Shown here piece by piece: positions 10,900 through 30,767 of a DNA stretch of 32,000 nt (positions within the stretch are counted from its first letter, which is position 1; the number at the start of each line of letters is the position of its first letter). The translations under genes and the position numbers were made by a program. The DNA is from Promethearchaeota archaeon. Lineage in GTDB: Archaea; Asgardarchaeota; Lokiarchaeia; Sigyniarchaeales; SOKP01. Where the stretch lies: the NCBI GenBank assembly GCA_030606485.1, contig JAUWGH010000009.1:74266-106265 (forward strand), in the 5' to 3' direction. The notes beneath the pieces were generated by a model that saw only the letters and a list, made by a program, of their open reading frames with translations, made no database searches and had not been told where the DNA came from.

Positions 10900-11012
10900 A
10901 TCAATTTCACATATTTATTAATAAATTTTTTAAGTAAATTGTAAATAAAATTCTTCCTCATGATTTATAAAGTTTTATTCAAATAGCAACTAAAAAAATT
11001 TTAACTTTATTT

Positions 11013-12365: not shown

Positions 12366-12492
12366 AATGTTCTCACATATTTTTTGCAAAAATTTTTTAA
12401 AATAAATTGTAAAATAAATAATCTAATAAAAATTCTGTAAATGAATATAAGAAATTTTTGATTAAATATTAACTATCTTTTCTGTTTATTTT

Positions 12493-12503
12493 AAAAAAAA
12501 AAA
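12493..12503 (-). terminator. U-tract terminator (T11 on minus strand)
   Basis: A11 on the plus strand, 20 nt past the stop at 12524. Confidence 0.5.
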
Positions 12504-12523
12504 TAAAATTTTAGATTAATGAT

Positions 12524-13909
12524 TTATTGAATTTTTTCTAATTCAATTAATCGTTTTTCATGAAGAACCTTTAGTTTTTCTTGTTGTTCGCAGAAGTTTT
12601 TGTAGTTTATTGGGAAGAATTTAAAAATTATTAAAGCACATAATCCTCCAAGAACAGGAACTAGTGATATTAATAATGTTAAACCGAATAAAGCAGAGGG
12701 TGATTGAGTTTCTGATCCCGATTCAAAGCCAGTAAGTAGTTGAACAGTTGTTAGAGTTATAGCCGCGAGCACAAGAGATAACCTTACTATAAATCCAAAA
12801 ACTCCGGTATACGTTCCTTCACGTCTTTTTCCAGTTTTCAATTCATCATAATCTATCGCTGCGCTGACTGCTGGTTCAGTCATCAACATTCCACCTACTC
12901 CAAAACCTGGTATGATTGTTATAAGTATTAGCATGGTAAAATCATTTACAAGAAAAATAGGCCAAATTGTTGCCGTAAATATTCCCATTGATAGGAGTAA
13001 TCCATATTTTGGTCCTTTTTTTGCATACATCCATCTCCAAAATAGCACACTAATAAGAATTCCTAATGCGATTCCCAAGAGACCAACACCAATCAATCCT
13101 ACTTCCACTTCCAGAACAAATAAAGCATATAGAGGAAGAACCATCATGGTTAAGCCAAATATAGTGTCAAGAATTGCATATGTCAATGTAATAATTAAGA
13201 ATGGCTTATTCGTAAGAGTCTCTTTAAATGCAGGAATGTAAGATAAAGGTTTATCTATTTGATACTCTTTTCTTTCTTTAATTCCAAGAAGTGACAAATA
13301 CATAAATATTGGTATTGTTAATCCAAAAATTATTCCAGCCATTGTCCAACTAGTAGCTGAAACAATCATAGGAGTTATTATAACACTAACCATACCTGAA
13401 AGAAATGCAAAGGTATCTTTCATAGCTACCATTGTTGCCCTTTCTTCTTCTTCTTCATACATTTCCGTGTATAATGCAGACCAAGCAGTCATTGCCAATG
13501 TAAAACCAAGATCGAATAGAAATAGCATTAGTAAAGCATGAAAAAATATAGCTGTCTGATCTGTCCATGGAACCCACCATAAAAGTATAAATCCAATAGT
13601 AAATGGAATAGTTCCAACGACAATATATGGAACTCGACGACCCCATTTAGTCACCTTTTTATCCATTAAATATCCAACTAAAGGATCATTAATTGCATTC
13701 CAGACACCATAAATTACCCATAAAACACCAAATAAAAAAGGATCAAGTCCAAGTGTTACTTCATAAAACAATACAATATAAGAACCTATTATTTGATAAG
13801 GAAGTGATGAAGGAATAGCTCCCAGAGAATACAGAAGATGTCCACGTAAGGAATGCACTTTATCTTTTACTTTTTTTTCTTTAATCTTTTTTTCATTCAT
13901 AGTAATCAA
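12524..13909 (-). CDS. GPH/MelB-like sugar:cation symporter (paralog C, more distant)
   Basis: WNAINDPLVGYLMD, WGRRVPY and DYDELKTGKRREGTY motifs. Real start may be ATG 13900. Confidence 0.92.
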   Translation of the reverse strand: MITMNEKKIKEKKVKDKVHSLRGHLLYSLGAIPSSLPYQIIGSYIVLFYEVTLGLDPFLFGVLWVIYGVWNAINDPLVGYLMDKKVTKWGRRVPYIVVGTIPFTIGFILLWWVPWTDQTAIFFHALLMLFLFDLGFTLAMTAWSALYTEMYEEEEERATMVAMKDTFAFLSGMVSVIITPMIVSATSWTMAGIIFGLTIPIFMYLSLLGIKERKEYQIDKPLSYIPAFKETLTNKPFLIITLTYAILDTIFGLTMMVLPLYALFVLEVEVGLIGVGLLGIALGILISVLFWRWMYAKKGPKYGLLLSMGIFTATIWPIFLVNDFTMLILITIIPGFGVGGMLMTEPAVSAAIDYDELKTGKRREGTYTGVFGFIVRLSLVLAAITLTTVQLLTGFESGSETQSPSALFGLTLLISLVPVLGGLCALIIFKFFPINYKNFCEQQEKLKVLHEKRLIELEKIQ

Positions 13910-14032: not shown

Positions 14033-15511
14033 TTATTTATCTTCTTCTATAACATTTAATCCAAACAATTTAGCGCCAATTAAAAATTTTTCTTTCCAGT
14101 CTCCAATAAAAGTTACTCTATGCCAGCCAAAGGTCTCCCAGTCATAATTTTCCAAAATCGCTTTCACATCACTTTCTACAAGCATCTTCGAGGTGCATCC
14201 TTTTTTATCTACGACATTATCTATAATTTTTCCTTGACGGATGGCAATTTTTTTTTCAAATACACTGATTTTTATTGTTGTTGCAATCTCACCTATTGGG
14301 AATTTAACGCGCGGAGTCGCTCCTAAAAATCCAGTTTCTCCGTGATATACAATATCATATTCGGCAGAAGGACCATCGACACCATATAATTTATTTGGAG
14401 CAAGGCAATGCATATAAGTAATTTGATTAGTAACTGAATCGAGAGTATGATTTGAAACAAATCCCGGTCGTCCAGTTAAATATAAGCCAAAAATATAACT
14501 TATAGCACAATCCATATCTGATTCACAAATTCCATAAAGACCTTCATTACTTAATTCGAAAAAGGGCATGCAAGGATAAGCTGGAAAAATACCACTTATA
14601 AGAAGAGTTCCGCAGTCAGGAGCAACAAAATCGTATTTCTTTTCTTTTAAGATATTTTTAAACGCCAGATATAATTTTGCAGAATTTAAAATGGTTTTTT
14701 CAGTAGGTTCAATCTCTCTTGCATTTTTAATCCATTTCTCTGCAATTTTAGCAGCTTTTTCTTCACTTATTTCATCATAATACTTTCTAATGTCTTCTGG
14801 ATTTTCTCTTATCATCTCAACACCAAAAATTTCTCTAAGATTTTCTCTGTATTTATCCTCATCTTTCCTCCATTTATGTGCTTGATCAGTTCCAACTAAA
14901 TCGAGATAAAATTCAGATTCTCCCTCTCTCATTTTTCCAACTTGTTCAATGAATTCTGGATGTTCTTTCAAAATTCTACTCCTTTCTGGATTTACTAATC
15001 CCAAGACTCCTTCCCAATTTATCTTTTTTGAATCGGTGGCATAAACTAAGACTTTCTTTCCTTTAATATTTAGGAGATTAATCATATTTTCAATTTGTTT
15101 ATCAAAATCTTCAATATTTTGTGAAGATATAGGAATTACAGGAAAATTCTTATCTTTTATTATGGTGTAAATTTTTGTAAATGTATGATCTCCCCCATAG
15201 ATATAATTTGCTAAAATTGTAGGTTTCCCAATTTCGATAAATTCTATGCCTGCTTTTACTATTCCTGGCTCACCATAGTGCCCAATTGTATAGATTAATA
15301 TCCCATCTGCGTTAAAAATATCTTCTTTGATTTTCTTAACTAATTGCACATCGTCAGTTGTAACCATTTCACTCTGGCTAAACTCAACTTCAGGATATTT
15401 CTTCTTTAGATGGTTGAGAATGGATGTTTTCAAAGGTTCGTTATCATATCCTAAATAAGGCCAGCCAGCCTCCCATTGAGGTTTTCCAATAAAAATTATT
15501 TGTATCTTCAT
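14033..15511 (-). CDS. L-fucose/L-arabinose isomerase-like protein
   Basis: APDCG, AYPCM, CESDMD and HCLAP motifs with a C-terminal beta domain. The GTG at 15520 is probably the RBS (AAGTGA) for ATG 15511. Confidence 0.7.
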   Translation of the reverse strand: MKIQIIFIGKPQWEAGWPYLGYDNEPLKTSILNHLKKKYPEVEFSQSEMVTTDDVQLVKKIKEDIFNADGILIYTIGHYGEPGIVKAGIEFIEIGKPTILANYIYGGDHTFTKIYTIIKDKNFPVIPISSQNIEDFDKQIENMINLLNIKGKKVLVYATDSKKINWEGVLGLVNPERSRILKEHPEFIEQVGKMREGESEFYLDLVGTDQAHKWRKDEDKYRENLREIFGVEMIRENPEDIRKYYDEISEEKAAKIAEKWIKNAREIEPTEKTILNSAKLYLAFKNILKEKKYDFVAPDCGTLLISGIFPAYPCMPFFELSNEGLYGICESDMDCAISYIFGLYLTGRPGFVSNHTLDSVTNQITYMHCLAPNKLYGVDGPSAEYDIVYHGETGFLGATPRVKFPIGEIATTIKISVFEKKIAIRQGKIIDNVVDKKGCTSKMLVESDVKAILENYDWETFGWHRVTFIGDWKEKFLIGAKLFGLNVIEEDK

Positions 15512-15630
15512 ATTTTTCACTTTTTAAATAAATTTAATTCTTTAAATCTTTTTTAATATTAGTTTTATTTAAGCAAAAATTAAATAAATTTTTTTTTAAT
15601 TAGAAAGAAATTGATTTGAAGATATTTAAA

Positions 15631-16428
15631 TTAAATACCTAAAATTTTTCGTGCTTCTGATGGATCTGCTACTTCTCGTCCCATTTCTTTAGATATTCTG
15701 ACCATTCCAGATACTAGTTCTGCATTATCTTTTGCAGGAATCCCCTTCTTAATAAAAGGATAATCTTCAGTTCCTATTCGTACATTTCCGCCATGTGCTA
15801 TGGCTAGAGTTGCAATTTTTATCTGGTTCTCTCCCATAACACTTATTGTGTGCAAACAATTTTGAGGCATATATTTTATCCTATGAAAATATTCATCATC
15901 AGTCGAAGGAGACCATGTCCCTCCGGGCCAATTAAAAAACAAGGTTAACACATGAGGTGTTTCTAATAAATTTTTATTAATTAGATAATTCAAATTCCAA
16001 TAAGACCCAGTATGCCATACTTCCCACTCTGGCTTTATGTTGAACTCCTTACATTTCACGCAATATTTTTCTAATTCCTCAATAGTATGGAGTTGATTAA
16101 CTCTTATTTGCGTGAAATACTCATCATGATGATTTAAAATTATCGAAAGCATATCGGGTTTAGCTTGAAAATCAGCCTCTCTTTCTTCTATTGGATAACT
16201 CGACATTCCAGCTTGAATTATAATATCACATCTTTCCCTAATTTTTTTAACAGTATCAACCTCTTCCCCTCTCGGGAGATGAACATGAGCTATAGAAGCA
16301 CCTACTTCATAGCATTTTACAATTGATTCTATTAAATCATCGGTTGTTTGAGCCCAATTCTTTACATCTGGATAAATCCAGGAATTGGCTGTTGTAGCCG
16401 TTAAAATCATTTTTTTAAAATTTTTCAT
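15631..16428 (-). CDS. BKACE / DUF849 beta-keto acid cleavage enzyme family protein
   Basis: GASIAHVH zinc motif, KPEWEV, GGNVRIGTED (canonical GGxVRVGLED), and DNAELV...GREVAxPxEARxILG tail. Confidence 0.9.
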   Translation of the reverse strand: MKNFKKMILTATTANSWIYPDVKNWAQTTDDLIESIVKCYEVGASIAHVHLPRGEEVDTVKKIRERCDIIIQAGMSSYPIEEREADFQAKPDMLSIILNHHDEYFTQIRVNQLHTIEELEKYCVKCKEFNIKPEWEVWHTGSYWNLNYLINKNLLETPHVLTLFFNWPGGTWSPSTDDEYFHRIKYMPQNCLHTISVMGENQIKIATLAIAHGGNVRIGTEDYPFIKKGIPAKDNAELVSGMVRISKEMGREVADPSEARKILGI

Positions 16429-18664: not shown

Positions 18665-19732
18665 ATGAAAGTTCCCCAATATTTGAATTTATATAAGCCC
18701 AAAATAAACGATTCAATAAAAAAAATATACGAAAACAAATTAAATGAAGTCCAAAATCCTTTTTTAAAGGAATATTATAATGAATTAATGGATTATTTTT
18801 TGGTTGGGGGTAAAAGATTAAGACCATTGGTTTGTATAGCCACATATAATGCTTTTAGCTCTGAAAGGGATGATAAAATAGTCTTTCCCAGTGTGGGAGT
18901 TGAATTTCTCCATAATGCTTCATTAATTCACGATGATATAATAGATAAGGATGATTTTAGGCGCAATAATCCTGCATTTCATTATAGATTCGAGCAGTAT
19001 CATTCCAGATTTAATTTAAAAAAGATGAATAAAGAAGATTTTGGTAATTCAATAGGAATTTTAGGTGGAGATTCAGCATTTTTTTTTGGATTAGAGGCGT
19101 TTTTCAATAGTGAGTTTGATAATGACCAGAATCTTAAAGCAATTCAATATTATGAAAACGCTTTTAAGGAGATATGTGATGGTGTATTAATTGAATTGGA
19201 TATGGTAAATAGGCAATCTATACCAATGAAGGATTATATTGAAATGATCTCATTAAAAACCGGTGCATTAATTGAAAAATCTATGTTGATTGGTGCAAAT
19301 TATGCTATGGTTGAGGATAAATATCTTCAAAATATCTCAAAATATGCTATTAATCTTGGAATTATCTTTCAAATGATCGATGATATATTAGGAACTTTTG
19401 GAGATGAAAAAATTACTGGAAAACCTACAAATGGAGATATAAGGGAAGGCAAGAAAACTTGTTTGTTGATAGATGCTCTTGAAAAATTAGATTACAATAA
19501 AAAAGAAAGGATCCTTGATTTAATTGGAAATCCTAATATAAGAGACGAGGAAGTTCAAGAAGTCAAGGATTTATTCCTTGAAGCTGAGGCCGTTTTTTCT
19601 TGTAAGAACATAGTGAATGATTATGCTAAAATTGCTAGGATTCAGCTTGAAGAGTTAATTCCTTATATTAATCAGTCTGAAGCAGAGTTTTTTGAAAATT
19701 TATTAAAATATGTTGTTGAGCGGAACTTCTAA
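18665..19732 (+). CDS. idsA: Trans-isoprenyl diphosphate synthase (GGPP synthase-like; product length uncertain)
   Basis: GGKRLRP, FARM HDDIIDKDDFRR, KTG, SARM FQMIDDILG, GDIREGKKT. Confidence 0.93.
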   Translation: MKVPQYLNLYKPKINDSIKKIYENKLNEVQNPFLKEYYNELMDYFLVGGKRLRPLVCIATYNAFSSERDDKIVFPSVGVEFLHNASLIHDDIIDKDDFRRNNPAFHYRFEQYHSRFNLKKMNKEDFGNSIGILGGDSAFFFGLEAFFNSEFDNDQNLKAIQYYENAFKEICDGVLIELDMVNRQSIPMKDYIEMISLKTGALIEKSMLIGANYAMVEDKYLQNISKYAINLGIIFQMIDDILGTFGDEKITGKPTNGDIREGKKTCLLIDALEKLDYNKKERILDLIGNPNIRDEEVQEVKDLFLEAEAVFSCKNIVNDYAKIARIQLEELIPYINQSEAEFFENLLKYVVERNF

Positions 19733-19738
19733 ACAGAA

Positions 19739-20821
19739 TTATTGATTTAACCACGGATATAATTTACTAAGAAAAATTCTTTTATTTATATTATTCTTTA
19801 ATTCATTTATATTCTTTAAATTCATCAACCATAAACAAGAACGTAATTCTCGTTTTATTGTTTTTATTTCATTTATAGTATTAATATTCGTTTTATTTTG
19901 GTAATCTTTCCATGCAGTTAAGAGGAAATTATAAGCAAACCCTCCAATATCTGCACCTAATGCAATGGATTTAGCAACATCAGCTCCAGTTCTCAACCCA
20001 CCAGTCGCAATAATAATCTTATTTGAAACTTTCCTTACATTAATTACACTTACAGGAGTAGGTATTCCCCAATCCCTGAAAAGCTCTGCTGGGTCACGTG
20101 AATATTTTTCATTAATAAAATTTTTTCGCTTAGATTCAATTGCAGCAAAACTTGTTCCACCAAATCCTCCTACATCAAAACCATCAAATCCAAGGTTTTC
20201 AAGAATTAAAGCCATTTCTTGACTGATTCCTGTTCCAACTTCTTTTGCTATTATTGGAATCTTAATTTTTTCTCTTATTTTTTGAAAATTTGAACGGAAT
20301 AAACTATATGAAATATTACCCTTATCCTGAACTAATTCATGCAATGCATTGAAATGTATTGCCATTACGTCAGCTTTAATCATATCAATGCATTTATTAA
20401 AATTTTCAATATTGAAATTTTTCTCACTTATTTGACCAATACCAATATTTCCAATCAGTGGAATATTAGGCGCAACTTCTCGAACCACTTTAAATGAGTT
20501 CTCTGTTGACAGATCTTCTAATCCAGCGCGTTGACTCCCTACTCCCATAATAATCTTCTCTGACTCTGCGGCTGTAGCAAGAATTCTATTGATTTCTTTA
20601 GAAATCTTGTGCCCACCAGTTATAGCAGCAATACATATGGGTGCCGATATTTGTTTATTAAAAAATTTTGTAGTTAAATCAATATCTTCAAAATTTACCT
20701 CAGGGAGAGAATGATGCATCAATTTAATATATTTGAAGTAATTTTCAGAATGTTGAACATCAAATTCAATTGGGATTTTTAGATGATCCAGTTTTCTCTT
20801 ATTTATATCATTTTCATTCAT
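19739..20821 (-). CDS. fni: Type 2 (FMN-dependent) isopentenyl-diphosphate delta-isomerase
   Basis: RKLDH, TGG, GVGSQR, GNIG, KEVGTG, DVGGFGGTSFAAIE, WGIPT, ATGGLRTG. Confidence 0.95.
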   Translation of the reverse strand: MNENDINKRKLDHLKIPIEFDVQHSENYFKYIKLMHHSLPEVNFEDIDLTTKFFNKQISAPICIAAITGGHKISKEINRILATAAESEKIIMGVGSQRAGLEDLSTENSFKVVREVAPNIPLIGNIGIGQISEKNFNIENFNKCIDMIKADVMAIHFNALHELVQDKGNISYSLFRSNFQKIREKIKIPIIAKEVGTGISQEMALILENLGFDGFDVGGFGGTSFAAIESKRKNFINEKYSRDPAELFRDWGIPTPVSVINVRKVSNKIIIATGGLRTGADVAKSIALGADIGGFAYNFLLTAWKDYQNKTNINTINEIKTIKRELRSCLWLMNLKNINELKNNINKRIFLSKLYPWLNQ

Positions 20822-20831
20822 AATTCTTTGC

Positions 20832-21641
20832 TCATTTTATTGTGGTTGAAATTATATCTTGATTTTTTAATGCTTTAAGTATAAATTCATCTTTTAAACC
20901 ATTTATTATTTGAACGGGAATATTTTGTTGACAAATTTGTTTGATTTTATTAATTTTACCTTTAATTCCGCCTGTTACATCGATTTTACTTTCTAAATCA
21001 GCTATTTCAATTATATCTAAATCTTCAAATTTCAATTCTGTCGCTAGTTTTATATAAAATTTGTCATTATCTCTTTCTCTGATAAATAATCCATCTTTTT
21101 CAATAGCAAAAATAACCTTAGAGATATTATAATTTTTAATTTTCTTACATAATTCCACGATGATTTGGTCCCCTGAAATAATTGAGAATGACCCCTTTGA
21201 ATCAAGGATTATATCTCCATACAAAATAGGTAAAATATCAAGATCTAAGGCAGTTTCAATAACATTAATCGATTGAGTTGAGATATTTTGAGAATCTTTG
21301 ATGAAAATACTGGAAGCTTGAATTGATAATGCAGGATATTTTTTTTCTAAAAATAGATTAATTAAATAGGAATTGAATTTATTCATTGATTGGTGAGTTT
21401 CAGTAAGTCCAAGAATTTGATTTGGAATAGATGCATTTATACCATTTGAAAGGCTATATTTTTTAGCAAGAGGATGGCCAAACGAACCTCCTCCATGAAT
21501 TAATATTAATTTTTCATTAGCATCTATAATTTGTTGAACTGCGCTTTTAACAACATTTTTTCTAATAGAAAAGGGTTTATTTTTATTAGTTAATAAACTT
21601 CCACCCAACTTTAATAGATAAATTTTATTACTGTTATTCAA
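20832..21641 (-). CDS. ipk: Isopentenyl phosphate kinase
   Basis: Amino-acid-kinase fold: LKLGGSLLTNK, IHGGGSFGH (IPK His), SGD, DVTGGI. Operon context. TTG start. Confidence 0.93.
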   Translation of the reverse strand: MNNSNKIYLLKLGGSLLTNKNKPFSIRKNVVKSAVQQIIDANEKLILIHGGGSFGHPLAKKYSLSNGINASIPNQILGLTETHQSMNKFNSYLINLFLEKKYPALSIQASSIFIKDSQNISTQSINVIETALDLDILPILYGDIILDSKGSFSIISGDQIIVELCKKIKNYNISKVIFAIEKDGLFIRERDNDKFYIKLATELKFEDLDIIEIADLESKIDVTGGIKGKINKIKQICQQNIPVQIINGLKDEFILKALKNQDIISTTIK

Positions 21642-21653
21642 TTTAAATCAATC

Positions 21654-22589
21654 TCATCCAATTATGGTTTTCCAGGCATCATAACCCTCTTTTTCGATTG
21701 CCTTGGCTATTTTTTCTTGTATTTCTTTATTTTCAGCTAAAGCAATTACTAAACCACCACGCCCGGTTCCTGTCATTTTAGCTCCAATCGCTCCATTTTT
21801 TAACGCTATTTGAACTAATTTATCATTTATTTCTCCTGAAACCGTAATTTCTTGGAGTAATTTGTGGTTTTGATTCATTAAATTACCTATAGAAATAATA
21901 TTTCCTTCAAGTAAGGCCATTTTTGCTTTATCTGCTATTTCTTTATATTCCTTAAAAATTTTCTCAAATTTATTAGGATTTTCATCTTTTAAACGCCGAA
22001 CATCAGCAACTACTTCTGCTGTAGAGGCAGTTATTCCTGAATTTGCGATTATTAAAATCATTTTTATTGGTGATTGCAAGAGATCCATAGTATTTTTCCC
22101 ACCACTCAAGTTTTTCACAAACCAAATCAATCCTCCATAAGTTGAGGCGGTATTGTCAATACCAGAAGGAGTTCCGTGATATGCTTTCTCTCCTTCATAC
22201 GCAGCTTCATTTATCTTTTCATCGTCCAAATTTAGATTAAAGCTGTCATTTAAGGCTCGAGCTAGTGATGTACATTGAGCCGCTGAAGCACCAACTCCAC
22301 TCGCAGCAATTAAATCTCCAGCAAAAGTTATTTCAAGTTTTTGACTATCTGTATCAATTTTTAGATACTCTAATACATTTTTAATGGATTGTTGTGCTTC
22401 ATCAAATTTCTTTATTTTATAACCTGGCGTTTCAGGTCTCTGATCATCAACAATCCATCCTTTGCCTTCGATAATTTTAATATTAGCAGTCGTAGAAGAA
22501 CCTAATGCTGATGCGATTGCTGAAAACCCATAAATAACAAAATGTTCACCAAATAAAATTGTTTTTCCATAACCTTTACCAAATCCCAT
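21654..22589 (-). CDS. mvk: Mevalonate kinase
   Basis: GKTILFGEHFVIYG, GVGASAA GHMP loop, HGTPSGIDN, GAKMTGTGRGG. Confidence 0.95.
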   Translation of the reverse strand: MGFGKGYGKTILFGEHFVIYGFSAIASALGSSTTANIKIIEGKGWIVDDQRPETPGYKIKKFDEAQQSIKNVLEYLKIDTDSQKLEITFAGDLIAASGVGASAAQCTSLARALNDSFNLNLDDEKINEAAYEGEKAYHGTPSGIDNTASTYGGLIWFVKNLSGGKNTMDLLQSPIKMILIIANSGITASTAEVVADVRRLKDENPNKFEKIFKEYKEIADKAKMALLEGNIISIGNLMNQNHKLLQEITVSGEINDKLVQIALKNGAIGAKMTGTGRGGLVIALAENKEIQEKIAKAIEKEGYDAWKTIIG

Positions 22590-22604: not shown

Positions 22605-22994
22605 TTATTTTATCTCTACAGTTCCTTCTGAACCATTAACAATGATTTTTTGTCCAGTTTTAATATTATTAATATCAATTTTGTCCACACAAGGAATTTC
22701 ACTAATTATACAACCTACCGCTATTATCGTGTCAATTTGTTCATTTACTATTGCAGCTGGAGCAGTATTCTTTTTCTTCATCCGATACATCGTATAGGAA
22801 CCTACTGTTGAACCTTTTCCGGTAGGAAAAACTAACACTTTTCCAGTTATTGATTGACCCTCTAATTCATGTCCAACTTCAACCACCTTACCTGTATCAG
22901 GGTCAACGCCTCCATAAAATGAAATTCCATCTTTAGTTACAATCGCCTCTGCTTCTACTATTCCCTTATAAATCTTTCTCCCCTCTAACTTCAT
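22605..22994 (-). CDS. Phosphomevalonate dehydratase small subunit (AcnX swivel domain, DUF126)
   Basis: GKVLVFPTGKGSTVGSY with the catalytic Ser. ATGA overlap with the large subunit gene. GGAGG RBS. Confidence 0.92.
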   Translation of the reverse strand: MKLEGRKIYKGIVEAEAIVTKDGISFYGGVDPDTGKVVEVGHELEGQSITGKVLVFPTGKGSTVGSYTMYRMKKKNTAPAAIVNEQIDTIIAVGCIISEIPCVDKIDINNIKTGQKIIVNGSEGTVEIK

Positions 22995-24190
22995 ATTGTC
23001 GCCTCCTTAACACATTCTTTAATCGTTCCAATTTTTACTTTAAATTTATTCTTAGCGCGGCCATAATAACACGCTTTTGCTGAATCTACCATTATTCCCT
23101 TGAAGCGTCCTTTAATTGGAGCTACAACACAGCAAGTATCTGCTGCGAATTTTGCTCCAGCATCTTCAATTATTTTAGAATAGCCAGCTTCATCAGCGAT
23201 TCTTTTTGTAGGTCGAGCAGTAGTAATCCAAAATTCTTTATTTACTTTATTACCTTTCAATAAACTTGCAATTGTTGCTATTTCGTGAATTGAAGCGTGA
23301 GGACACCCGATACTAACGAAATCAATTTCAATATCATCATCAATAAGATCAGAACGAGTTTTATTAAGGTTATCCTGATTAATTTCAAAAATATCATCTC
23401 TTGGTTTAGGATACATATTATATTCTGGGGTTATGCCTTCCATATGAAATAATGCTGTACCTCCATAAGTAGCCACTGAAGCGCAGAATGATTTAAGTTC
23501 CTCAACTGTTGCTGAAGAAATTCCAGTAATATAAGGTATTTTCTTTCCTAATTCAACCAATTTATCACCAATTATTTTTCCTAACACGCCAAATTCATCT
23601 GTACCTTTCACTGGAACCTTAACTTCAATTAAAACCTGTCCATGACGATTTTTATCTAGATGATAACCATATTTTGGTGTTTTTCCAGTTAAAGCAGCAG
23701 CTAGTGCACTTGGACCACCTTCACGATTTGTTCGAGCACCAATAACAGAATTTGAATAGCAAACAGCACTACTCTCGGCCCAAGCAATATGCTGACCAAA
23801 ATGTGGGGCGTTTCCTATTAAATATGGTGTACAAGAACATGTTGTAATTATTCCCATTTTTGCAAAGGTATCTATAGCACGGTTTTGATTAATAGCAAAT
23901 TCTTTTTCAATTCCTAAAGCTTGCCAATTTTCTCGGTCCATTCCGGCTGGATTTAAAGTTGTTAAGACCCTAACCTTTCCATCTTCTGCCATCTCACCTA
24001 AAAATTCTAGACCTGCTTCCCCTAAATTTGCATAAGAAACTCCTGCTATTTGCACGCTATAAACCTCAATCATACATTCTGCATCGAATATCTCACCTAA
24101 TGTGGTTAATATCTCCATGGATTTTTGAGTTGATCTTCCTTGCTTGCCATCCAACATATCTTTTTCTTCTGATGTTAATTTCAATCTCAT
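22991..24190 (-). CDS. Phosphomevalonate dehydratase large subunit (AcnX catalytic domain, DUF521)
   Basis: TCSCTPY, WAESSA, NSVIGARTNREG, IGCPH and DTCCVV motifs. Flanked by mvk and a UbiD gene. Confidence 0.92.
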   Translation of the reverse strand: MRLKLTSEEKDMLDGKQGRSTQKSMEILTTLGEIFDAECMIEVYSVQIAGVSYANLGEAGLEFLGEMAEDGKVRVLTTLNPAGMDRENWQALGIEKEFAINQNRAIDTFAKMGIITTCSCTPYLIGNAPHFGQHIAWAESSAVCYSNSVIGARTNREGGPSALAAALTGKTPKYGYHLDKNRHGQVLIEVKVPVKGTDEFGVLGKIIGDKLVELGKKIPYITGISSATVEELKSFCASVATYGGTALFHMEGITPEYNMYPKPRDDIFEINQDNLNKTRSDLIDDDIEIDFVSIGCPHASIHEIATIASLLKGNKVNKEFWITTARPTKRIADEAGYSKIIEDAGAKFAADTCCVVAPIKGRFKGIMVDSAKACYYGRAKNKFKVKIGTIKECVKEATI

Positions 24191-24203
24191 CGACTTCTAT
24201 ATA

Positions 24204-25505
24204 TTAAAAATATTTATTTATGTCTACTTTAGGGAAATTTGCTTTATTATAACTCTTTCCTTTAGCTACAAGTGGTTTTGTCAAATCAAAACCAATTTTT
24301 GTAGTCATTTTTGTACCAGGTTCAGCACTAGGATCTAGACTACTTCCTGGTTCTTTATCTTTAATGATCATCCGTGTATCCCCTTGAAAGCGAGTTGCCA
24401 TTGCCCATTCTACAAACAGAGGGTTATAAATATTAATATCCTTATCAACAATAAAAACATGTTTGCAGCTTTTATGACCAGTAAAAGCTTCTTCTATTGC
24501 CATTTTGCCATCTTCTTCTGTTTTTTTATCAATTTGGATGATTGCATGTAACCAGGAACATCCACCAGGATTAATATTTACATCCAAGCATTTCACTCCT
24601 GCTTCATTTATTTTTTTGAAAATAGTTGGTTCTCGTGGCATTCCCATTAATATTTTATGCTCAAGCGCCCCTGGTAATAAAGCTTGCCAAATTGCCTTCT
24701 TTCTATGAGTGATTTTTTTGACTTCAAAAACAGGTTCTTCCCTAATCACGTCATAAGTTTCTGTTAAATCGACAAATGGCCCTTCAGAGTGTTTTTTTTC
24801 CATATAAACGCGACCTTCTAAAACAAATTCTGTTTCTGCAGGAATTAAAAGATCTACTGAATTTGCTTTAACAACTTTAATGGGTTCTAATGCATTTGCT
24901 ATTTGTAATTCATCAACTCCAATATCTACAGAAGTCGCTCCAGCAATTAGAATGTTAGGAGTATTTCCAATACAAAATGCTACATCTAATTCAGCGTTTT
25001 TTTCCAAAAATTTATGAAAATGACGACCACTAACTATTCGAGTAGCAAATTTTTCTTTAGAAAATTGCATTGCTCGATGAAAATCCATATTTTGTCCATA
25101 ATCTGGATCTCTAGTAATAACAACAGCAGAACTGATATAATTCCCACCATCTTTTTCACAATGGAATAAAATTGGAAGTTTATCTAAATCAACGTTCGAT
25201 TCAATTACTTCTTGACAAGGAGCGTTTGAAACAATCTCTGGTTCCGAACGTTCAGATATTGCTTTTGAAAGCAATGGTATGAGATCTACTGGAGTCACGC
25301 CGAAATATGAAGCAATTACATTCTTGGTACAAAATATATTACCAACCACTCGAAATTCCGATTCTTTAACATTATTAAACATTACTGGGGTTGGTTCAAT
25401 CTCTTTTAAAATTCCAGAGATCTCTAATTTCTTCGATACTTCAACATCTACCTTTCGAAGAAGACCTTTCTCATCAATTTGATTTATATATTCTCTAAAT
25501 CCCAT
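24204..25505 (-). CDS. UbiD-family decarboxylase, probable trans-anhydromevalonate 5-phosphate decarboxylase
   Basis: EGPFVDLTETYD, GGCSWLHAIIQI, VDxDINI...VEWAMATRFQ, SSLDPS, KIGFDLT motifs. Adjacent to the AcnX pair. ATG 25505 preferred over TTG 25514. Confidence 0.88.
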   Translation of the reverse strand: MGFREYINQIDEKGLLRKVDVEVSKKLEISGILKEIEPTPVMFNNVKESEFRVVGNIFCTKNVIASYFGVTPVDLIPLLSKAISERSEPEIVSNAPCQEVIESNVDLDKLPILFHCEKDGGNYISSAVVITRDPDYGQNMDFHRAMQFSKEKFATRIVSGRHFHKFLEKNAELDVAFCIGNTPNILIAGATSVDIGVDELQIANALEPIKVVKANSVDLLIPAETEFVLEGRVYMEKKHSEGPFVDLTETYDVIREEPVFEVKKITHRKKAIWQALLPGALEHKILMGMPREPTIFKKINEAGVKCLDVNINPGGCSWLHAIIQIDKKTEEDGKMAIEEAFTGHKSCKHVFIVDKDINIYNPLFVEWAMATRFQGDTRMIIKDKEPGSSLDPSAEPGTKMTTKIGFDLTKPLVAKGKSYNKANFPKVDINKYF

Positions 25506-25599
25506 AAATTTCAATCATCTCAAAGCCTTATTATTAATAATACAATTATCTACATTATTGTTTTTTTTAAGAAAACTTACATGAATAAATTTTAAAAAA

Positions 25600-26880
25600 C
25601 TAAAGGTTTTCACTATCAATTATTTTTTTAAAAATTTCTTTCGCATAATCAACTCTAATTTTTTTATCTTCCACCAATTTTTTTGCAACTTTTTCTATTA
25701 ATTCTTCAGGTACTCCCGCTAGTTTTGCAATATTTCTTGAATGTAGGGACATATGTCCTTTTTGAATTCCTTCTGAAGCTAAAGCTCTTAGAGCAGCTAC
25801 ATTTTGAGCCAAACCGAGAGCGGCTGCTACTTGAGAAAGCTCATTAGCACTTTTAATATTTAAAATTTTTAACGCTAATCGTGCCATAGGATGTATTTTA
25901 GTCATTCCACCTATAATGCCAAGAGCAAGAGGTATTTCTATTTCTCCTGCTAAGTTCCCATCTGAATCAACTTGAAATTTTGTCAATGGAGAATAATGTC
26001 CACTTAATGCTGCAAATGCATGAGCCCCAGCTTCAATAGCGCGCGTATCATTTCCTGTAGCCATAGTTAAAGCTACAATCCCGTTCATTATACCTTTATT
26101 ATGGGTTGTTGCTCTGAAAGGATCAGCGAGTGCAAATTCATAGGCATTTATTATACCCTCAACTACATTATCTCCACCTAATAACTCTTTATTAAAAACA
26201 GCTTTACACCTTGCAAGACGATGTATAGCTAAGTTAGAAACAATTCTAAGAAAAACTTCTCCCTCACAAATTTCTTCAATATAAGGCGCTACAGCTTCTG
26301 CCATTGTATTTACTACATTGGCACCCATTGCATCTAAAACATCTACTAATAAATGGACAATCAGCATAGTACCTTTTCTTGTTGATATTTCATGAATTTC
26401 AAGATCAAATGCCCCCCCTTTTAAACTTGTTAAAATTGGATCTTGTTCATTCGCGATTTTTAAAATTTTATCCTTATTTTTCTCAATATTTTCTTTTGCA
26501 ATATTCATATTTTTTACATTAGTAACTTGTATCTGAGAAAACATTATTGATCTAATTTTTTCAGAATAGAATCCACCATTTTTTCTCGCAATTTTTGCAG
26601 CATTTGAAGCCGCAGCTACGACAGAAGGCTCTTCAATTACCATTGGTATTAAATAATCTTTATTATTAATTTTAAAATTGCAAGCAATACCCATTGGTAA
26701 ATGGTAACTCCCTATAACATTTTCTATTAATGTATCTAGTTGAGAAGGAGAAATATATCCATAATTTTTTAACAACTTGAGTTCTTCTCTATTAAGATTA
26801 ACAAGTTTAGTTATTACTTGTTGACGTTCATCAATTGATAATTTATAAAATCCAGGAATATTAGAGTTGATATCATTCAT
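25600..26880 (-). CDS. mvaA: Class II HMG-CoA reductase
   Basis: IENVIG, EEPSVVAAAS, DAMGAN, THNKGIMNG, NDTRAIEAGAHA, QKGHMSLH: class II signatures. Confidence 0.95.
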   Translation of the reverse strand: MNDINSNIPGFYKLSIDERQQVITKLVNLNREELKLLKNYGYISPSQLDTLIENVIGSYHLPMGIACNFKINNKDYLIPMVIEEPSVVAAASNAAKIARKNGGFYSEKIRSIMFSQIQVTNVKNMNIAKENIEKNKDKILKIANEQDPILTSLKGGAFDLEIHEISTRKGTMLIVHLLVDVLDAMGANVVNTMAEAVAPYIEEICEGEVFLRIVSNLAIHRLARCKAVFNKELLGGDNVVEGIINAYEFALADPFRATTHNKGIMNGIVALTMATGNDTRAIEAGAHAFAALSGHYSPLTKFQVDSDGNLAGEIEIPLALGIIGGMTKIHPMARLALKILNIKSANELSQVAAALGLAQNVAALRALASEGIQKGHMSLHSRNIAKLAGVPEELIEKVAKKLVEDKKIRVDYAKEIFKKIIDSENL

Positions 26881-26897
26881 TATTTTACATACATTAT

Positions 26898-28106
26898 TTA
26901 AGAAATATTAAATTTATTTATATCTTCTTTTAGCAGTTGAGCATTGGGAGAATTAGCACGAATTAACTTGCTTTCTCCTCCAATTTTTCCTTCAATAATG
27001 TCCAAATTCGGATTCAATTCTTTTAAATTATTAATTATACTATTTTTTTCATTTTTATATGTTAATAATACCACTGAAGGACCCGTATCAATTGAAAAAT
27101 ATACATTATAACCAGATGCACGCAGTTCTCGAACTCGAAGCATAATCGCTAGAGTATCTGGCTTCCAAGCAATAATATTTTGCTTTTGTTGTGCGGTCAT
27201 TGTTATTGAATGCAGACACATTGTATCATATTCCGCTAATTCTCCAATTTTATTCAAATCACAATTATTTAATGCCTTAAAGAATTCAAAAACCTTTTTT
27301 TTCCGTTCTTTTAACCAAGAAAGAAAAAAAGGCGATTTTGGGGCAATCTTATGAACTTGTTCGGTTTTTAAATCAGAATTGATTGGAATAGTTATAAGGG
27401 AAATATTATTAACAAATTTTTTGTGTTCTTCTCTATCAAGGCGGATTGCAAAACAGTCAAATGGATCTATTGTAGGATGACTCAACCAAAGTGCGAATCC
27501 ACCTGCGGCACTACGTGTTCCAGATCCAGCTAAATATCTAGAAAATAAGCTAATTAAACGTTTATTTTCAATATATTCTGATTCATTGTTATATAATATC
27601 GAAATTGCAGCTAAAGCAAGAGCTGCAGAACCGGAAGCAGATGTTCCTAATCCTTTACCAGTTAACGATTTATGCGAAGATTTTAAAAAATTACCCGAAA
27701 TTAACAAAGCTTTTGATTTAATTTTTGAATATTCTCTAATTAGATCTAAAGAAATTGCAATTCTCTTTAAATTATCGTTCGATAATTTTTTTCCATTTAA
27801 AAATGCAATATCTTCTCTTAATCGCTTATCAAATTTTAAATAAGAAACTGTAAAGGCTGCATCATTATTAAAAGAAACACTGGGGAAATATGAGATTCGA
27901 TGTTCTTTACTTACCAACCCATGATATTTTAGTACTCCTTGAATAGGATATGCTAATGTATATGATTCACCCTCATCAGATATTGCCTTATTTTTTAATG
28001 GGAGTGTTTGAATATTATAATTCCTTTTAATTAAATAATTTAAAATCTCATCATAATCGTTTTTTAATTGATTCACAAGAGACTTAGGAACAATATTAGA
28101 CATCAT
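26898..28106 (-). CDS. mvaD: GHMP-family mevalonate decarboxylase, probably phosphomevalonate decarboxylase (PMD type)
   Basis: AYPIQGVLKYHG matches the PMD-type start (recalled as HPIQGLVKYHG in haloarchaea) rather than the NIALIKYWGK of diphosphomevalonate decarboxylases. GLGTSASG, SGTRS and SIDTGPS (catalytic Asp) are present. Confidence 0.82.
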   Translation of the reverse strand: MMSNIVPKSLVNQLKNDYDEILNYLIKRNYNIQTLPLKNKAISDEGESYTLAYPIQGVLKYHGLVSKEHRISYFPSVSFNNDAAFTVSYLKFDKRLREDIAFLNGKKLSNDNLKRIAISLDLIREYSKIKSKALLISGNFLKSSHKSLTGKGLGTSASGSAALALAAISILYNNESEYIENKRLISLFSRYLAGSGTRSAAGGFALWLSHPTIDPFDCFAIRLDREEHKKFVNNISLITIPINSDLKTEQVHKIAPKSPFFLSWLKERKKKVFEFFKALNNCDLNKIGELAEYDTMCLHSITMTAQQKQNIIAWKPDTLAIMLRVRELRASGYNVYFSIDTGPSVVLLTYKNEKNSIINNLKELNPNLDIIEGKIGGESKLIRANSPNAQLLKEDINKFNIS

Positions 28107-28111
28107 TGACC

Positions 28112-29755
28112 CTAAATATTAATATAATGATAAGCTGATTTATTTAAGGGAATATAAGTAGGAGTCCAATTTAACAATCCATTACTTACGGATTGATCTT
28201 CAAGCGTACTTTCAACACGACGCATTTCACATTCTAAAAGATTTCCTCTTTCTGGATAGCCTTGGATTCTTACTAGATCTTCTTTTAGGAAGCTAAGGTC
28301 ATTTCCATTTCTATCGATTGGCTCAGAAATTAATACAGCAAATAGTGGAAAAAACTTCGTATAAAAACCAGAATGTCCTTTAGGACAATAATTTAATCCC
28401 TCTATATGTGGAATTATACATCCTTCATTGCAAAAATGAAGTGTAAAACCTTTTGCTTTATTTTTTTTATATTCCTCTATATGTCCTAAGCTAATGTGCG
28501 GTGTTAAAAGACCTTGTTTTATCTGTTCGTATTCTCGAACACTTTTTCGTTCTTTTATTTTAAGATAATCAATAATTTGTGGTCTGTGTCTAACAACTCG
28601 ATTAAATCTTGGCTGAACTTTTAATAAACCTGAGATACAAGTTGCCCCAGAACCATAAGAACCAAAATAAATTGTACTACCCACACGAGCAGTAGTTTCG
28701 AGGATATACAATATTTGAGCCCAAACTGAAGCTGAATACATATTACCGAAATGCATAGGGACTTTCAATTGTGGAATTACTCTATTTTTTATATTTGTAA
28801 GTACCCAATTTTTCATGATGTCTAGTTGAGTTAATTTCAATCCTTTATCTTTTAATTTTACACCTATAAATTCTGGAATGAAACTTATATTTTGCATAAA
28901 GTCATTTATTTTTTTAATAATTGAAGATCTTATATGATGCGGTTCAATTTTTAAAGTTCTACTTATATCCTTAACCCAACGCTTAACGATTATATTCTGC
29001 ATGCATTTTAAAGCTAGCTTACTATATGGAGCATGAAATACATAATAATCTGCGTAAAAATCTCCAATATTTTTAGTTAAATCATCAAATGCAGCTAATT
29101 GAAAATTAAGATAAGAATCAACGGAATATCGTCCAAATACTTGAGGAACTGATTCATTTGCGGGTCTATAAAAATCATTAATATTTCCTGAAATTTTTCC
29201 GAATTTCTTACTGAAGGTTGCTATTCGTGGATTTTTTGATAGAACAAAAGCCACTGCACCTGCTCCTTGTGTGGGCTCTCCTGGACTTTCTAAATTATAA
29301 GAAGATATATCTGCTCCTATTACCAATGCTCTTTTAATTACATCCCCCTCAATTAAAGCAATTGCATTAAGAATTGCAAGTGTACCAGCAGCACAAGCGT
29401 TATATACATCTTGTGTTAAAGAATTTATGTTAATCCCTAATAATTGGGCGAGTATATTTGAAACAGATTTAACAGCATAAGTTATTGTTTCAGTTCCAAC
29501 AAATATTGCATCTATTTTTTTCGGATTGATATTTCCTCGAAGTAATGCATTATAACCGGCTTTTAACCCCATAGATACAATATCTTCACCTACTTCAGGA
29601 AATCTCATCTCTTTTAAAAGCAATCCCTTTTTATATTTATTTGGATCAACATTTCTTATAATGGCAAGATCATTTAAATTCAAATAAAATCTTGGCGCAT
29701 AGAAACCAATTGAGTCTATTCCGATATTACTAAATAAGTGTTTATCACTCTTCAT
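28112..29755 (-). CDS. mvaS: HMG-CoA synthase with a ~130-aa C-terminal Zn-ribbon/OB (DUF35-like) extension
   Basis: VGTET (Glu), NACAAGT (Cys), EPTQGAGAVA, FHAPYSKL (His), GNMYSAS (Asn), SYGSG. The extra C-terminal region carries CNEGC-x10-CPKGH. Confidence 0.9.
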   Translation of the reverse strand: MKSDKHLFSNIGIDSIGFYAPRFYLNLNDLAIIRNVDPNKYKKGLLLKEMRFPEVGEDIVSMGLKAGYNALLRGNINPKKIDAIFVGTETITYAVKSVSNILAQLLGININSLTQDVYNACAAGTLAILNAIALIEGDVIKRALVIGADISSYNLESPGEPTQGAGAVAFVLSKNPRIATFSKKFGKISGNINDFYRPANESVPQVFGRYSVDSYLNFQLAAFDDLTKNIGDFYADYYVFHAPYSKLALKCMQNIIVKRWVKDISRTLKIEPHHIRSSIIKKINDFMQNISFIPEFIGVKLKDKGLKLTQLDIMKNWVLTNIKNRVIPQLKVPMHFGNMYSASVWAQILYILETTARVGSTIYFGSYGSGATCISGLLKVQPRFNRVVRHRPQIIDYLKIKERKSVREYEQIKQGLLTPHISLGHIEEYKKNKAKGFTLHFCNEGCIIPHIEGLNYCPKGHSGFYTKFFPLFAVLISEPIDRNGNDLSFLKEDLVRIQGYPERGNLLECEMRRVESTLEDQSVSNGLLNWTPTYIPLNKSAYHYINI

Positions 29756-30029: not shown

Positions 30030-30767
30030 GTGGGAAATAAGTTGGAAGAATTGAAAAAAGAAGCAAAGGGCAAATTACCTAGACATATTGGACTTATTCT
30101 CGATGGAAATCGCCGATGGGCAAAAAAAAGAAATCTTAATATGAATTTAGGGCATTTAGCGGGATATGAAACTTTGAGGAAAATATTATTTAGTTTCTTA
30201 GATTTGGGTATTAAATATTTAAGCGTCTTTGCTTTATCAAATGAAAATGTTAAAAAAAGAAGTCCCCAAGAACTTCAATATATCTATAATCTGATAATTA
30301 ATGTAATTGATGTTATTAGTAAAGATCCGGTTATTAAAGAAGAGAAAGTTAGAATGAATGTAATAGGTAGATTATCGTTATTACCACCTGATGTGAGAGA
30401 AAAAATTAATTCACTTATTGAGACAACAAAAGATTATGACCAAAAATTTTTGAATATATGTATAATGTATGATGGCCAAGAAGAAATTATAGATGCAGTG
30501 AAAAAAATTTTAGATGATAAAATAAACTCAAAGGATGTAAATATTGATTTAATTAAAAATTATCTATATACTAAAGATTTTCCCGAATTGGATTACATTA
30601 TCCGGACAGGGATGGAAGATGGGGCAAGAATTTCAGGATTTTTATTGTGGGATGCTTCATATGCTGAATTTAAATTTCGAACTGACTTATGGCCGGATTA
30701 TAGTAAAGAAATGGTATTAGAAGATTTACAAGATTACGCAAATAGAAATAGAAGGAAGGGCAAGTGA
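30030..30767 (+). CDS. uppS: Cis-prenyltransferase (undecaprenyl/polyprenyl diphosphate synthase)
   Basis: PRHIGLILDGNRRWA, FALSNEN, YDGQEEI, DYIIRTG...RISGFLLW, C-terminal RKG. Start may be TTG 30042 (GGTGG 8 nt upstream). Confidence 0.95.
   Translation: MGNKLEELKKEAKGKLPRHIGLILDGNRRWAKKRNLNMNLGHLAGYETLRKILFSFLDLGIKYLSVFALSNENVKKRSPQELQYIYNLIINVIDVISKDPVIKEEKVRMNVIGRLSLLPPDVREKINSLIETTKDYDQKFLNICIMYDGQEEIIDAVKKILDDKINSKDVNIDLIKNYLYTKDFPELDYIIRTGMEDGARISGFLLWDASYAEFKFRTDLWPDYSKEMVLEDLQDYANRNRRKGK

Follow-up and report, generated by a model that had tools for sequence, protein, structure and literature searches.

In the archaeal variant of the mevalonate pathway, mevalonate 5-phosphate is processed by a phosphomevalonate dehydratase (PMDh) and an anhydromevalonate phosphate decarboxylase (AMPD) that requires prenylated flavin mononucleotide (prFMN), whereas the route through a phosphomevalonate decarboxylase (PMD) needs neither an Fe-S cluster nor prFMN but costs one ATP. 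The PMDh is oxygen-sensitive via its Fe-S cluster (PMC10040528; PMC12547664). Here we analyze a locus that combines candidate genes for both routes, located in a 32,000-nucleotide stretch (hereafter, the window) of the genome of a Promethearchaeota archaeon from the class Lokiarchaeia (assembly GCA_030606485.1, contig JAUWGH010000009.1, positions 74,266 to 106,265). The subject is a run of nine mevalonate pathway genes that encodes an MvaD-like decarboxylase of the GHMP family (denoted P0001) along with the two subunits of AcnX and a UbiD family protein.

For the survey of Zhu et al. (2024, PMC11052028), we draw on the main text, the supplementary figure captions and Table S3. There, the Lokiarchaeial decarboxylases, which form the clade of P0001, are inferred to be PMDs since neither mevalonate-3-kinase (M3K) nor mevalonate-3-phosphate kinase (M3PK) is present. 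In the tree of that survey, the mevalonate-3,5-bisphosphate decarboxylase of the Thermoplasma type (BMD, also known as MBD) is sister to the Lokiarchaeial 'PMD', and our tree agrees. Genes resembling diphosphomevalonate decarboxylase (DMD) are reported without phosphomevalonate kinase (PMK) in the order CR-4, AcnX/AMPD genes share contigs with PMK/DMD in Hodarchaeales, and the type represented by MK-D1 is treated as a user of only the haloarchaeal route. Table S3 places PMD, AcnX1, AcnX2 and AMPD together in 12 genomes (five of Bathyarchaeia, five of Thermoplasmata, one of UBA186 and one of Lokiarchaeia), and a DMD-like gene together with AcnX and AMPD in four Lokiarchaeia. These parts of the publication give no account of operon embedding, of vertical co-inheritance, or of two mutually exclusive decarboxylase types beside AcnX/UbiD; in the literature that we consulted, we found no account of the modular operon architecture or of a residue-level case against BMD function.

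An operon predicted to encode two parallel routes

The window comes from a 100% complete archaeal genome of 3.75 Mb in 13 contigs, with a G+C content of ~30%. The closest homologs of its proteins belong to metagenome-assembled genomes of Promethearchaeota/Lokiarchaeia, and its DNA is found mainly in metagenomes from cold seeps, marine sediments and the subsurface. The nine genes occupy the minus strand from 29755 down to 19739, in the order HMG-CoA synthase (HMGS), MvaD-like decarboxylase, HMG-CoA reductase (HMGR), UbiD, AcnX large subunit, AcnX small subunit, mevalonate kinase (MVK), isopentenyl phosphate kinase (IPK) and type 2 isopentenyl diphosphate (IPP) isomerase (IDI2). The intergenic spacers are 5–17 nt long, with a single exception of 85 nt, and the two AcnX genes have 4 nt in common; given this tight spacing, the nine genes most likely form a single operon. 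We consider it probable that this operon provides two parallel routes from mevalonate 5-phosphate, the product of MVK, to isopentenyl phosphate, the substrate of IPK. A preliminary description of this DNA had placed a PMD-type decarboxylase with the motif AYPIQGVLKYHG and intact catalytic K, R and D residues in the same minus-strand run as an AcnX pair, UbiD, MVK and IPK. All these genes are indeed present, and both modules are intact, evolve under purifying selection and lie together.

The first gene of the operon encodes HMGS (28112–29755, 547 aa), with the HMG_CoA_synt_N and HMG_CoA_synt_C domains and a best NCBIfam match, TIGR01835 (232 bits), that is under the cut-off. It is followed by the gene for P0001 (26898–28106, 402 aa), a predicted ATP-dependent PMD of a long-form Lokiarchaeial clade that contains the MVD-like_N domain, and by class II HMGR (25600–26880; PF00368, E = 2e-106; TIGR00532, 482 vs cut-off 260). 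The UbiD family decarboxylase (24204–25514) encompasses the UbiD_N, UbiD and UbiD_C domains and matches TIGR00148 (363.9 vs 244.85). The AcnX large subunit (22991–24190; PF04412, E = 1e-146), a predicted PMDh, has 7cnr as its best PDB match, and the small, swivel subunit (22605–22994) matches PF01989 (E = 3e-36) and NF003046 (179 vs 163). The remaining genes encode MVK (21654–22589; TIGR00549, 226 vs 163), IPK (20832–21641; NF040647, 209 vs 120) and, at the end of the operon, IDI2 (19739–20821; TIGR02151, 356 vs 281).

The genome as a whole contains a single MvaD-like gene, one AcnX and one UbiD, and it encodes a UbiX on another contig (G000:C13:6979-7515; 218 bits vs cut-off 109). The absence of a PMK, noted in the preliminary description from the gene run, extends to the complete genome, where the best match to the archaeal PMK model is MVK itself (44 bits vs cut-off 500). 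The three other GHMP kinases of this genome resemble pantoate kinase, HddA and galactokinase. The animal-type PMK (PF04275) has no match in the genome but none in the control genomes either, so this search is uninformative. An assembly chimera was rejected because the order is identical in three congeneric genomes and most of the stretch is found in metagenomes of ~10 other studies. No RNA dataset is listed among those that contain the stretch; when four sequencing runs were compared with it, two probably-DNA libraries yielded a few short contigs and two metatranscriptomes yielded nothing, a result that is uninformative on expression.

The HMGS encoded in the window has a C-terminal extension of ~150 residues (residues 400–547; window 28112–28560) that carries a Cys/His cluster and matches neither DUF35 nor any other Pfam family at E values up to 0.01. 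Full-length HMGS including this tail is retained in all Lokiarchaeial operons compared. By this conservation, the tail is a fixed fusion outside the recognized Pfam families.

Distribution of the two modules in Lokiarchaeia

Our survey covered 161 species of Lokiarchaeia, with a single genome per species. Orthologs of P0001 (42–97% identity) are encoded in 40 genomes, and another 23 encode a different GHMP decarboxylase (open frames mostly ~340–370 aa, 27–33% identity to P0001), hereafter the Anaerolinea-like type; the AcnX large subunit is found in 123. The P0001 type is accompanied by AcnX in 23 genomes, as is the other type in all its 23 carriers, whereas 17 genomes, mainly of the sister family, encode a decarboxylase only, and ~77, many of them 98–100% complete, encode AcnX only. 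Thus, contrary to the view of the preliminary description that the two routes are normally alternatives, 46 of the 123 AcnX-bearing genomes encode a GHMP decarboxylase of either type, and co-occurrences are already apparent in Table S3 of Zhu et al. The pairing, then, is common in this lineage and partly described: the dual arrangement is frequent in Lokiarchaeia and visible in published tables, and the locus analyzed here is a clear example of it.

The association extends to gene neighborhoods. Operon-type AcnX (at least 77% identity) is encoded in 19 of the 23 genomes that combine the P0001 type with AcnX, and in 18 of these 19, the decarboxylase and AcnX lie on one contig within a few kb. 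We compared the operon architecture across 20 loci from relatives. The gene order of the window recurs in at least 12 loci from four genera and can be written as HMGS-[MvaDL]-HMGR-[UbiD-AcnXL-AcnXS]-MVK-IPK-IDI2, where MvaDL is the MvaD-like gene and AcnXL and AcnXS are the large and small subunits. Relative G065 lacks MvaDL, and the sister family lacks the UbiD-AcnX block; in G090, HMGS is followed by UbiX and a hydrolase, and a gene positive for the DMD model lies between AcnXS and MVK, and G058 shows matching gaps at both positions. These loci represent one operon frame that is used with modules.

In 15 other genomes, a slot of the same operon is occupied by the Anaerolinea-like gene, which is PMD-type and non-orthologous to P0001 (in 14 of them, on the AcnX contig). 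The second decarboxylase combines KYWGN/R with the PMD-type His, like the A. thermophila enzyme, and, by these residues, is probably a PMD as well (see also Zhu et al. 2024). The two types were never found in one genome in the 161-genome survey; the genomes being related, this mutual exclusion is only a hint of functional equivalence.

Additional variation is found around these modules. In the Anaerolinea-like version of the operon (L027:1765-3345; also L026), the interval between HMGS and HMGR holds a gene for an alpha/beta-hydrolase and, in the opposite orientation, one for UbiX; UbiX is, accordingly, part of the cluster in this version but is encoded on another contig in the window genome. 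Two deeply divergent MVK types, only 28–36% identical, are present in the Lokiarchaeial mevalonate operons (L023:8791-9684, L024:7301-8197, L025:2161-3087 and L029-L031 vs window 21654–22589); the equivalog cut-off is passed by the window MVK and by the two examples scanned from L023 and L030. One type travels with the MK-D1-like HMGS-MvaDL-HMGR frame, and the other directly follows the AcnX small subunit; the linkage of divergent MVKs to different frames suggests that the UbiD-AcnX-MVK block moved as a unit.

History and selective constraint

The tree of MvaDL and that of HMGS+HMGR agree on all strongly supported groups. Within these trees, one pair of genomes with both modules has an AcnX-only genome as its sister (support 99), and a second such pair is sister to carriers of the Anaerolinea-like type (support 99). 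The congruence of the trees indicates that, as at least four genera diversified, the dual state was passed on vertically, whereas the decarboxylase was repeatedly lost or replaced. Within the genus, dN/dS is 0.29–0.37 for MvaDL, compared to 0.05–0.13 for AcnXL, 0.08–0.15 for HMGR, 0.08–0.33 for UbiD and 0.14–0.28 for MVK, IPK and IDI2. Together with the identity between genera, these values suggest that MvaDL is functional but is the least constrained gene of the operon, which fits an accessory or back-up role beside the core archaeal route.

The same data bear on the possibility, raised in the preliminary description, of an evolutionary intermediate in the replacement of one pathway by the other. 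Under this reading, the dual state would be transient, and one module would be in the course of being lost or would no longer function. The decarboxylase is indeed patchy even within genera (it is present in 21 of the 54 genomes in genus g11), the state is not the same between sister lineages, either route has become fixed in related families, and dN/dS of MvaDL is the highest in the operon. However, at least four genera retain this architecture, and the gene trees are congruent; MvaDL evolves at a dN/dS well below 1, with 60–65% identity between genera, about equal to that of HMGS, IPK and IDI2; the catalytic and ATP-site residues are all intact in 14 of 14 genomes compared that have both modules; and in other lineages, a second, unrelated PMD-type gene resides in the same operon. 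Vertical inheritance across these genera weakens the case for an evolutionary intermediate, which we regard as unlikely.

P0001 is predicted to be an ATP-dependent decarboxylase

We constructed a decarboxylase tree from 120 full-length representatives drawn from a search of 1.8 billion proteins. In this tree, P0001 falls within a Lokiarchaeial clade (SH-aLRT 100) that is nested in a superclade of long-form proteins, mostly ~350–410 aa (SH-aLRT 99); the superclade also contains a sister group, to which a cluster from marine Chloroflexota and the BMD-like sequences of the Thermoplasma type belong. PMD-like and DMD sequences, which are shorter, are on the other side of the tree. Such placement alone decides no function for P0001, and therefore we compared residue patterns.

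The motif AYPIQGVLKYHG spans residues 52–63 of P0001; the catalytic residues K60, R198 and D340 are intact and conserved. We take residues of the S137/N139 type to be the adenine binders, following PMC5177888 and, in part, the S. epidermidis structures. In our alignment, the S-x-N signature directly before the P-loop is 93–96% conserved in DMD and PMD-like sequences and is absent from all BMD-like ones; S137 and N139 are kept in all 17 Lokiarchaeial-type sequences. MBDs were reported to be without the two adenine-binding residues that hardly vary among the ATP-dependent enzymes (Vinokur et al., PMC5177888), in agreement with this pattern. An unbiased scan for alignment columns that are at least 85% conserved in the ATP-dependent DMD/PMD representatives but lost in BMD-like sequences gave the same picture: the Lokiarchaeial type retains the ATP-dependent residue in most of these columns (A52, Y61, T86, S137, N139, S158, L163, F204, A278, G288, E292). 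The P-loop of P0001 is GLGTSAS (T155-S156), compared to GLGES in the BMD-like sequences, so that both the adenine-binding S-x-N and the phosphate loop are intact.

The residues expected to determine specificity for the monophosphate point the same way. In P0001, KYHG is followed by L64 in place of the Lys of DMD, and the residue aligned with H194 of A. thermophila PMD is H252; the PMD determinants N20 and H194 were taken from the title of the 6n0z entry, 'N20K H194M'. P0001 thus lacks Lys after KYxG and has His at the H194 position. The best PDB match by both sequence and fold is A. thermophila PMD (6n0x; E = 1.7e-30, TM 0.93). The AlphaFold model (pLDDT 94.9) yields TM 0.94 to 4du7 and 0.89–0.94 (target-length normalized) when compared to A. 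thermophila PMD, S. epidermidis DMD and P. torridus MBD, and P0001 adopts the fold of GHMP decarboxylases, its catalytic Asp, Arg and Lys being in place. The signatures are of the PMD type, as the preliminary description held, and not of the DMD or BMD type.

Gene content in relatives offers a separate line of evidence. Three single-contig, closed genomes of the sister family, which by name includes Promethearchaeum and Lokiarchaeum records, encode HMGS-MvaDL-HMGR-MVK-IPK-IDI2 but neither AcnX nor M3K. Judged by this gene content, the P0001 ortholog is the only candidate for the step in these organisms and must convert the product of MVK to the substrate of IPK. Because the ATP-site and PMD-type residues are kept and the ortholog is the sole candidate in the AcnX-less relatives, we consider P0001 quite likely to be an ATP-dependent PMD (EC 4.1.1.99) from an uncharacterized long-form clade.

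The principal competing assignment is an ATP-independent BMD of the Thermoplasma type, which would belong to a third route that requires an unrecognized 3-kinase and would not duplicate AcnX/UbiD. The highest-scoring NCBIfam match of P0001 is the BMD model (164.4 bits), the long-form superclade joins P0001 with BMD-like sequences, an N-terminal extension and the GSGTRSAAG motif are common to P0001 and PtoMBD, and Zhu et al. (2024, PMC11052028) likewise note that, by identity, the Lokiarchaeial decarboxylase is closer to MBD than it is to PMD. Against this, P0001 retains S-x-N, the P-loop Thr-Ser in place of the Glu-Ser of BMD, and Y61, G288 and E292, all of which are lost in BMD-like sequences; the ortholog in the closed AcnX-less relatives must accept the MVK product, and MVK is encoded in the operon itself. 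The only match to the M3K profile in the genome is P0001 (32 bits vs cut-off 440); mevalonate-3-phosphate-5-kinase (M3P5K) was not searched for. With the ATP-type residues kept, a score of 164 vs 560 for NF040847 and no M3K in the genome (M3P5K lay outside the search), BMD activity of P0001 appears very unlikely.

Two further identities were rejected: DMD, given KYHGL instead of KYWGK, H252 instead of Met, DTG instead of DAG, a TIGR01240 score of 106.7 vs 171 and no PMK found with the archaeal model or among the other GHMP kinases; and M3K, given the presence of the catalytic Asp.

The AcnX/UbiD module

Compared to the PDB, the AcnX large subunit is most similar to T. kodakarensis AcnX type II (7cnr, E = 5e-99), with type I proline dehydratases scoring weaker (E = 7e-61). 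In the mevalonate-5-phosphate dehydratase of Thermococcus kodakarensis, the Fe-S ligands are C110, C283 and C342 (PMC8184944), and C120, C296 and C353 of the window protein align with these positions. The module has the hallmarks of type II: its two subunits are encoded by separate, adjacent genes, the three Cys ligands are present, and the protein is most similar to the characterized enzyme. The closest solved relative of the window UbiD is a furandicarboxylate-type UbiD (6h6v). In all relatives examined, UbiD adjoins AcnX within the mevalonate operon, and from this conserved synteny, the window UbiD is predicted to be an AMPD-type decarboxylase. Its membership in the UbiD family is clear from the three domains and the TIGR00148 match above the cut-off, and the UbiX gene present in the genome makes the prFMN-dependent route plausible.

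Several relatives encode a second AcnX large-subunit paralog, 33–39% identical, outside the mevalonate operon (G024:C322:436-1578, G023:C239:7602-8741, G138:C11, G142:C126 and others). In other genera, a third AcnX type (42–48% identical) replaces the operon type.

It seems highly improbable that AcnX/UbiD, or the decarboxylase, acts on another substrate, such as a modified mevalonate or other hydroxy acid, so that the modules would be complementary and not redundant. The AcnX and UbiD families do hold enzymes with other substrates, the extra paralogs exist, and the two decarboxylase types repeatedly recruited beside AcnX/UbiD could supply what the archaeal route does not. However, the position of both modules is between HMGR and MVK/IPK, and in relatives, the pathway is complete with either of them alone; the closest match of AcnX is the mevalonate-5-phosphate dehydratase of known structure, and the window genome has only one AcnX and one UbiD.

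Possible roles of the two routes

In the scheme that we propose, the first route would be ATP-free, with an Fe-S PMDh, made up of the two AcnX subunits, acting ahead of a UbiD decarboxylase that depends on prFMN and to which UbiX, encoded elsewhere in the genome, would supply the cofactor. The second would consist of a single ATP-consuming step catalyzed by the decarboxylase of the long-form GHMP clade typical of Lokiarchaeia. The archaeal route would be the constant core, and the decarboxylase an accessory gene that descended vertically together with the operon. Purifying selection would act on this gene, though less strongly, and it would often have been lost or exchanged for a PMD-type enzyme that is not its ortholog.

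Several observations weigh against this scheme. P0001 falls under every NCBIfam equivalog cut-off, including those for BMD (NF040847, 164.4 vs 560), DMD and M3K as well as that for PMD (NF040704, 152.6 vs 475), the MvaD equivalog model, which was built on haloarchaeal sequences; in the tree, it groups with BMD-like sequences with an SH-aLRT of 99. A candidate phosphotransfer lysine in the mobile loop, K247, is not strictly conserved among the orthologs, and an insertion of ~10 residues immediately precedes the P-loop, where the confidence of the model is ~73. The orthology of UbiD to characterized AMPD is predicted from context, and the functions given for all proteins discussed here are predictions from sequence, model and context.

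As for the benefit of having both routes, the decarboxylase is most likely kept either as a back-up that is independent of the Fe-S cluster, the cofactor and the redox state, or as an ATP-driven route for flux. The suggestion in the preliminary description that an ATP-saving but fragile route is paired with a robust one is plausible. A more specific role can be envisaged as well. The prenyl group of prFMN comes, through UbiX, from dimethylallyl phosphate, which this pathway itself yields further downstream; the archaeal route would therefore be autocatalytic in its own cofactor. In a cell without its prFMN or Fe-S pool, for instance following long dormancy or oxidative damage in the sediment, the archaeal route alone could not restart isoprenoid synthesis, and the GHMP decarboxylase might then serve as a cofactor-independent starter that breaks the prFMN deadlock. 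We find this role quite doubtful, although, if true, it would explain the repeated recruitment of two unrelated, dispensable PMD-type genes into AcnX/UbiD operons. Our literature search found no discussion of prFMN autocatalysis in the mevalonate pathway.

Lokiarchaeia are close to the host lineage of eukaryotes, and the history of their mevalonate pathway bears on the origin of the eukaryotic route. In one large Lokiarchaeial family, the predicted ATP-free route and the predicted ATP-dependent decarboxylase have long coexisted in one operon and are not successive stages; the decarboxylase slot was filled twice, by unrelated enzymes. Such long coexistence and repeated filling of the slot point to a selective benefit of both routes, be it robustness, flux or the ability to restart. 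The operon could also be a compact natural template for the engineering of ATP-saving isoprenoid pathways with a built-in back-up, and the long-form Lokiarchaeial decarboxylase, located between PMD and the ATP-independent BMD, would be useful for studying the loss of kinase activity. The value of the locus is mainly that of a defined target for biochemical work.

Other features of the window

Two prenyltransferase genes on the plus strand flank the operon. A trans-polyprenyl diphosphate synthase (18665–19732; PF00348, E = 6e-55) is a convergent neighbor that stays beside the operon in relatives, and a UppS-type cis-prenyltransferase (30030–30767; PF01255, E = 7e-62; TIGR00055, 199 vs 110) is divergent from the promoter region of the operon. 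Three tandem MFS_2/GPH-type transporter paralogs (9547–13909) adjoin a gene for a beta-keto acid cleavage enzyme (BKACE; 15631–16428), and two long open reading frames (2612–6055, 1147 aa; 14033–15520, 495 aa) match no Pfam family at E values up to 0.01. Elsewhere in the genome, the only 16S rRNA match (G000:C2:450044-450885) scores 776 bits with the archaeal model vs 606 bits with the bacterial one and spans only model positions 4–828; the gene is truncated or interrupted in the assembly.

Comparison with known systems

The first module resembles the archaeal (trans-anhydromevalonate phosphate) pathway of Aeropyrum pernix and Methanosarcina mazei, which consists of PMDh (AcnX type II), AMPD (UbiD) and IPK. 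The window shares with it the two-subunit AcnX with three Fe-S Cys and the UbiD family gene beside AcnX; UbiX is likewise encoded in the genome, and the operon includes IPK and MVK. Unlike in that pathway, the operon embeds a GHMP decarboxylase; the likeness of the window UbiD to AMPD is drawn from context.

Among the characterized proteins, the nearest tree relative of P0001 is the Thermoplasma-type BMD/MBD; both have an N-terminal extension and a GSGTRS motif, and both keep the catalytic Asp. Unlike P0001, however, MBD has lost the adenine-binding Ser and Asn and carries Glu in the P-loop, and the window genome is devoid of a recognizable M3K.

The second module resembles the Haloarchaea/Chloroflexota-type pathway (Haloferax volcanii MvaD, Roseiflexus, A. 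thermophila PMD 6n0x), which, like the window, combines MVK, a GHMP decarboxylase and IPK, with no PMK. P0001 shares with 6n0x the fold (TM 0.93), the catalytic Asp/Arg/Lys, S-x-N, the P-loop, the PMD-type His and the lack of the DMD lysine, but is ~75 residues longer, owing to an N-terminal helix and an insertion before the P-loop, and is only 27–29% identical. In contrast to haloarchaeal MvaD, it scores below the equivalog cut-off and belongs to a separate long-form clade, and, in the window, it coexists with the archaeal route.

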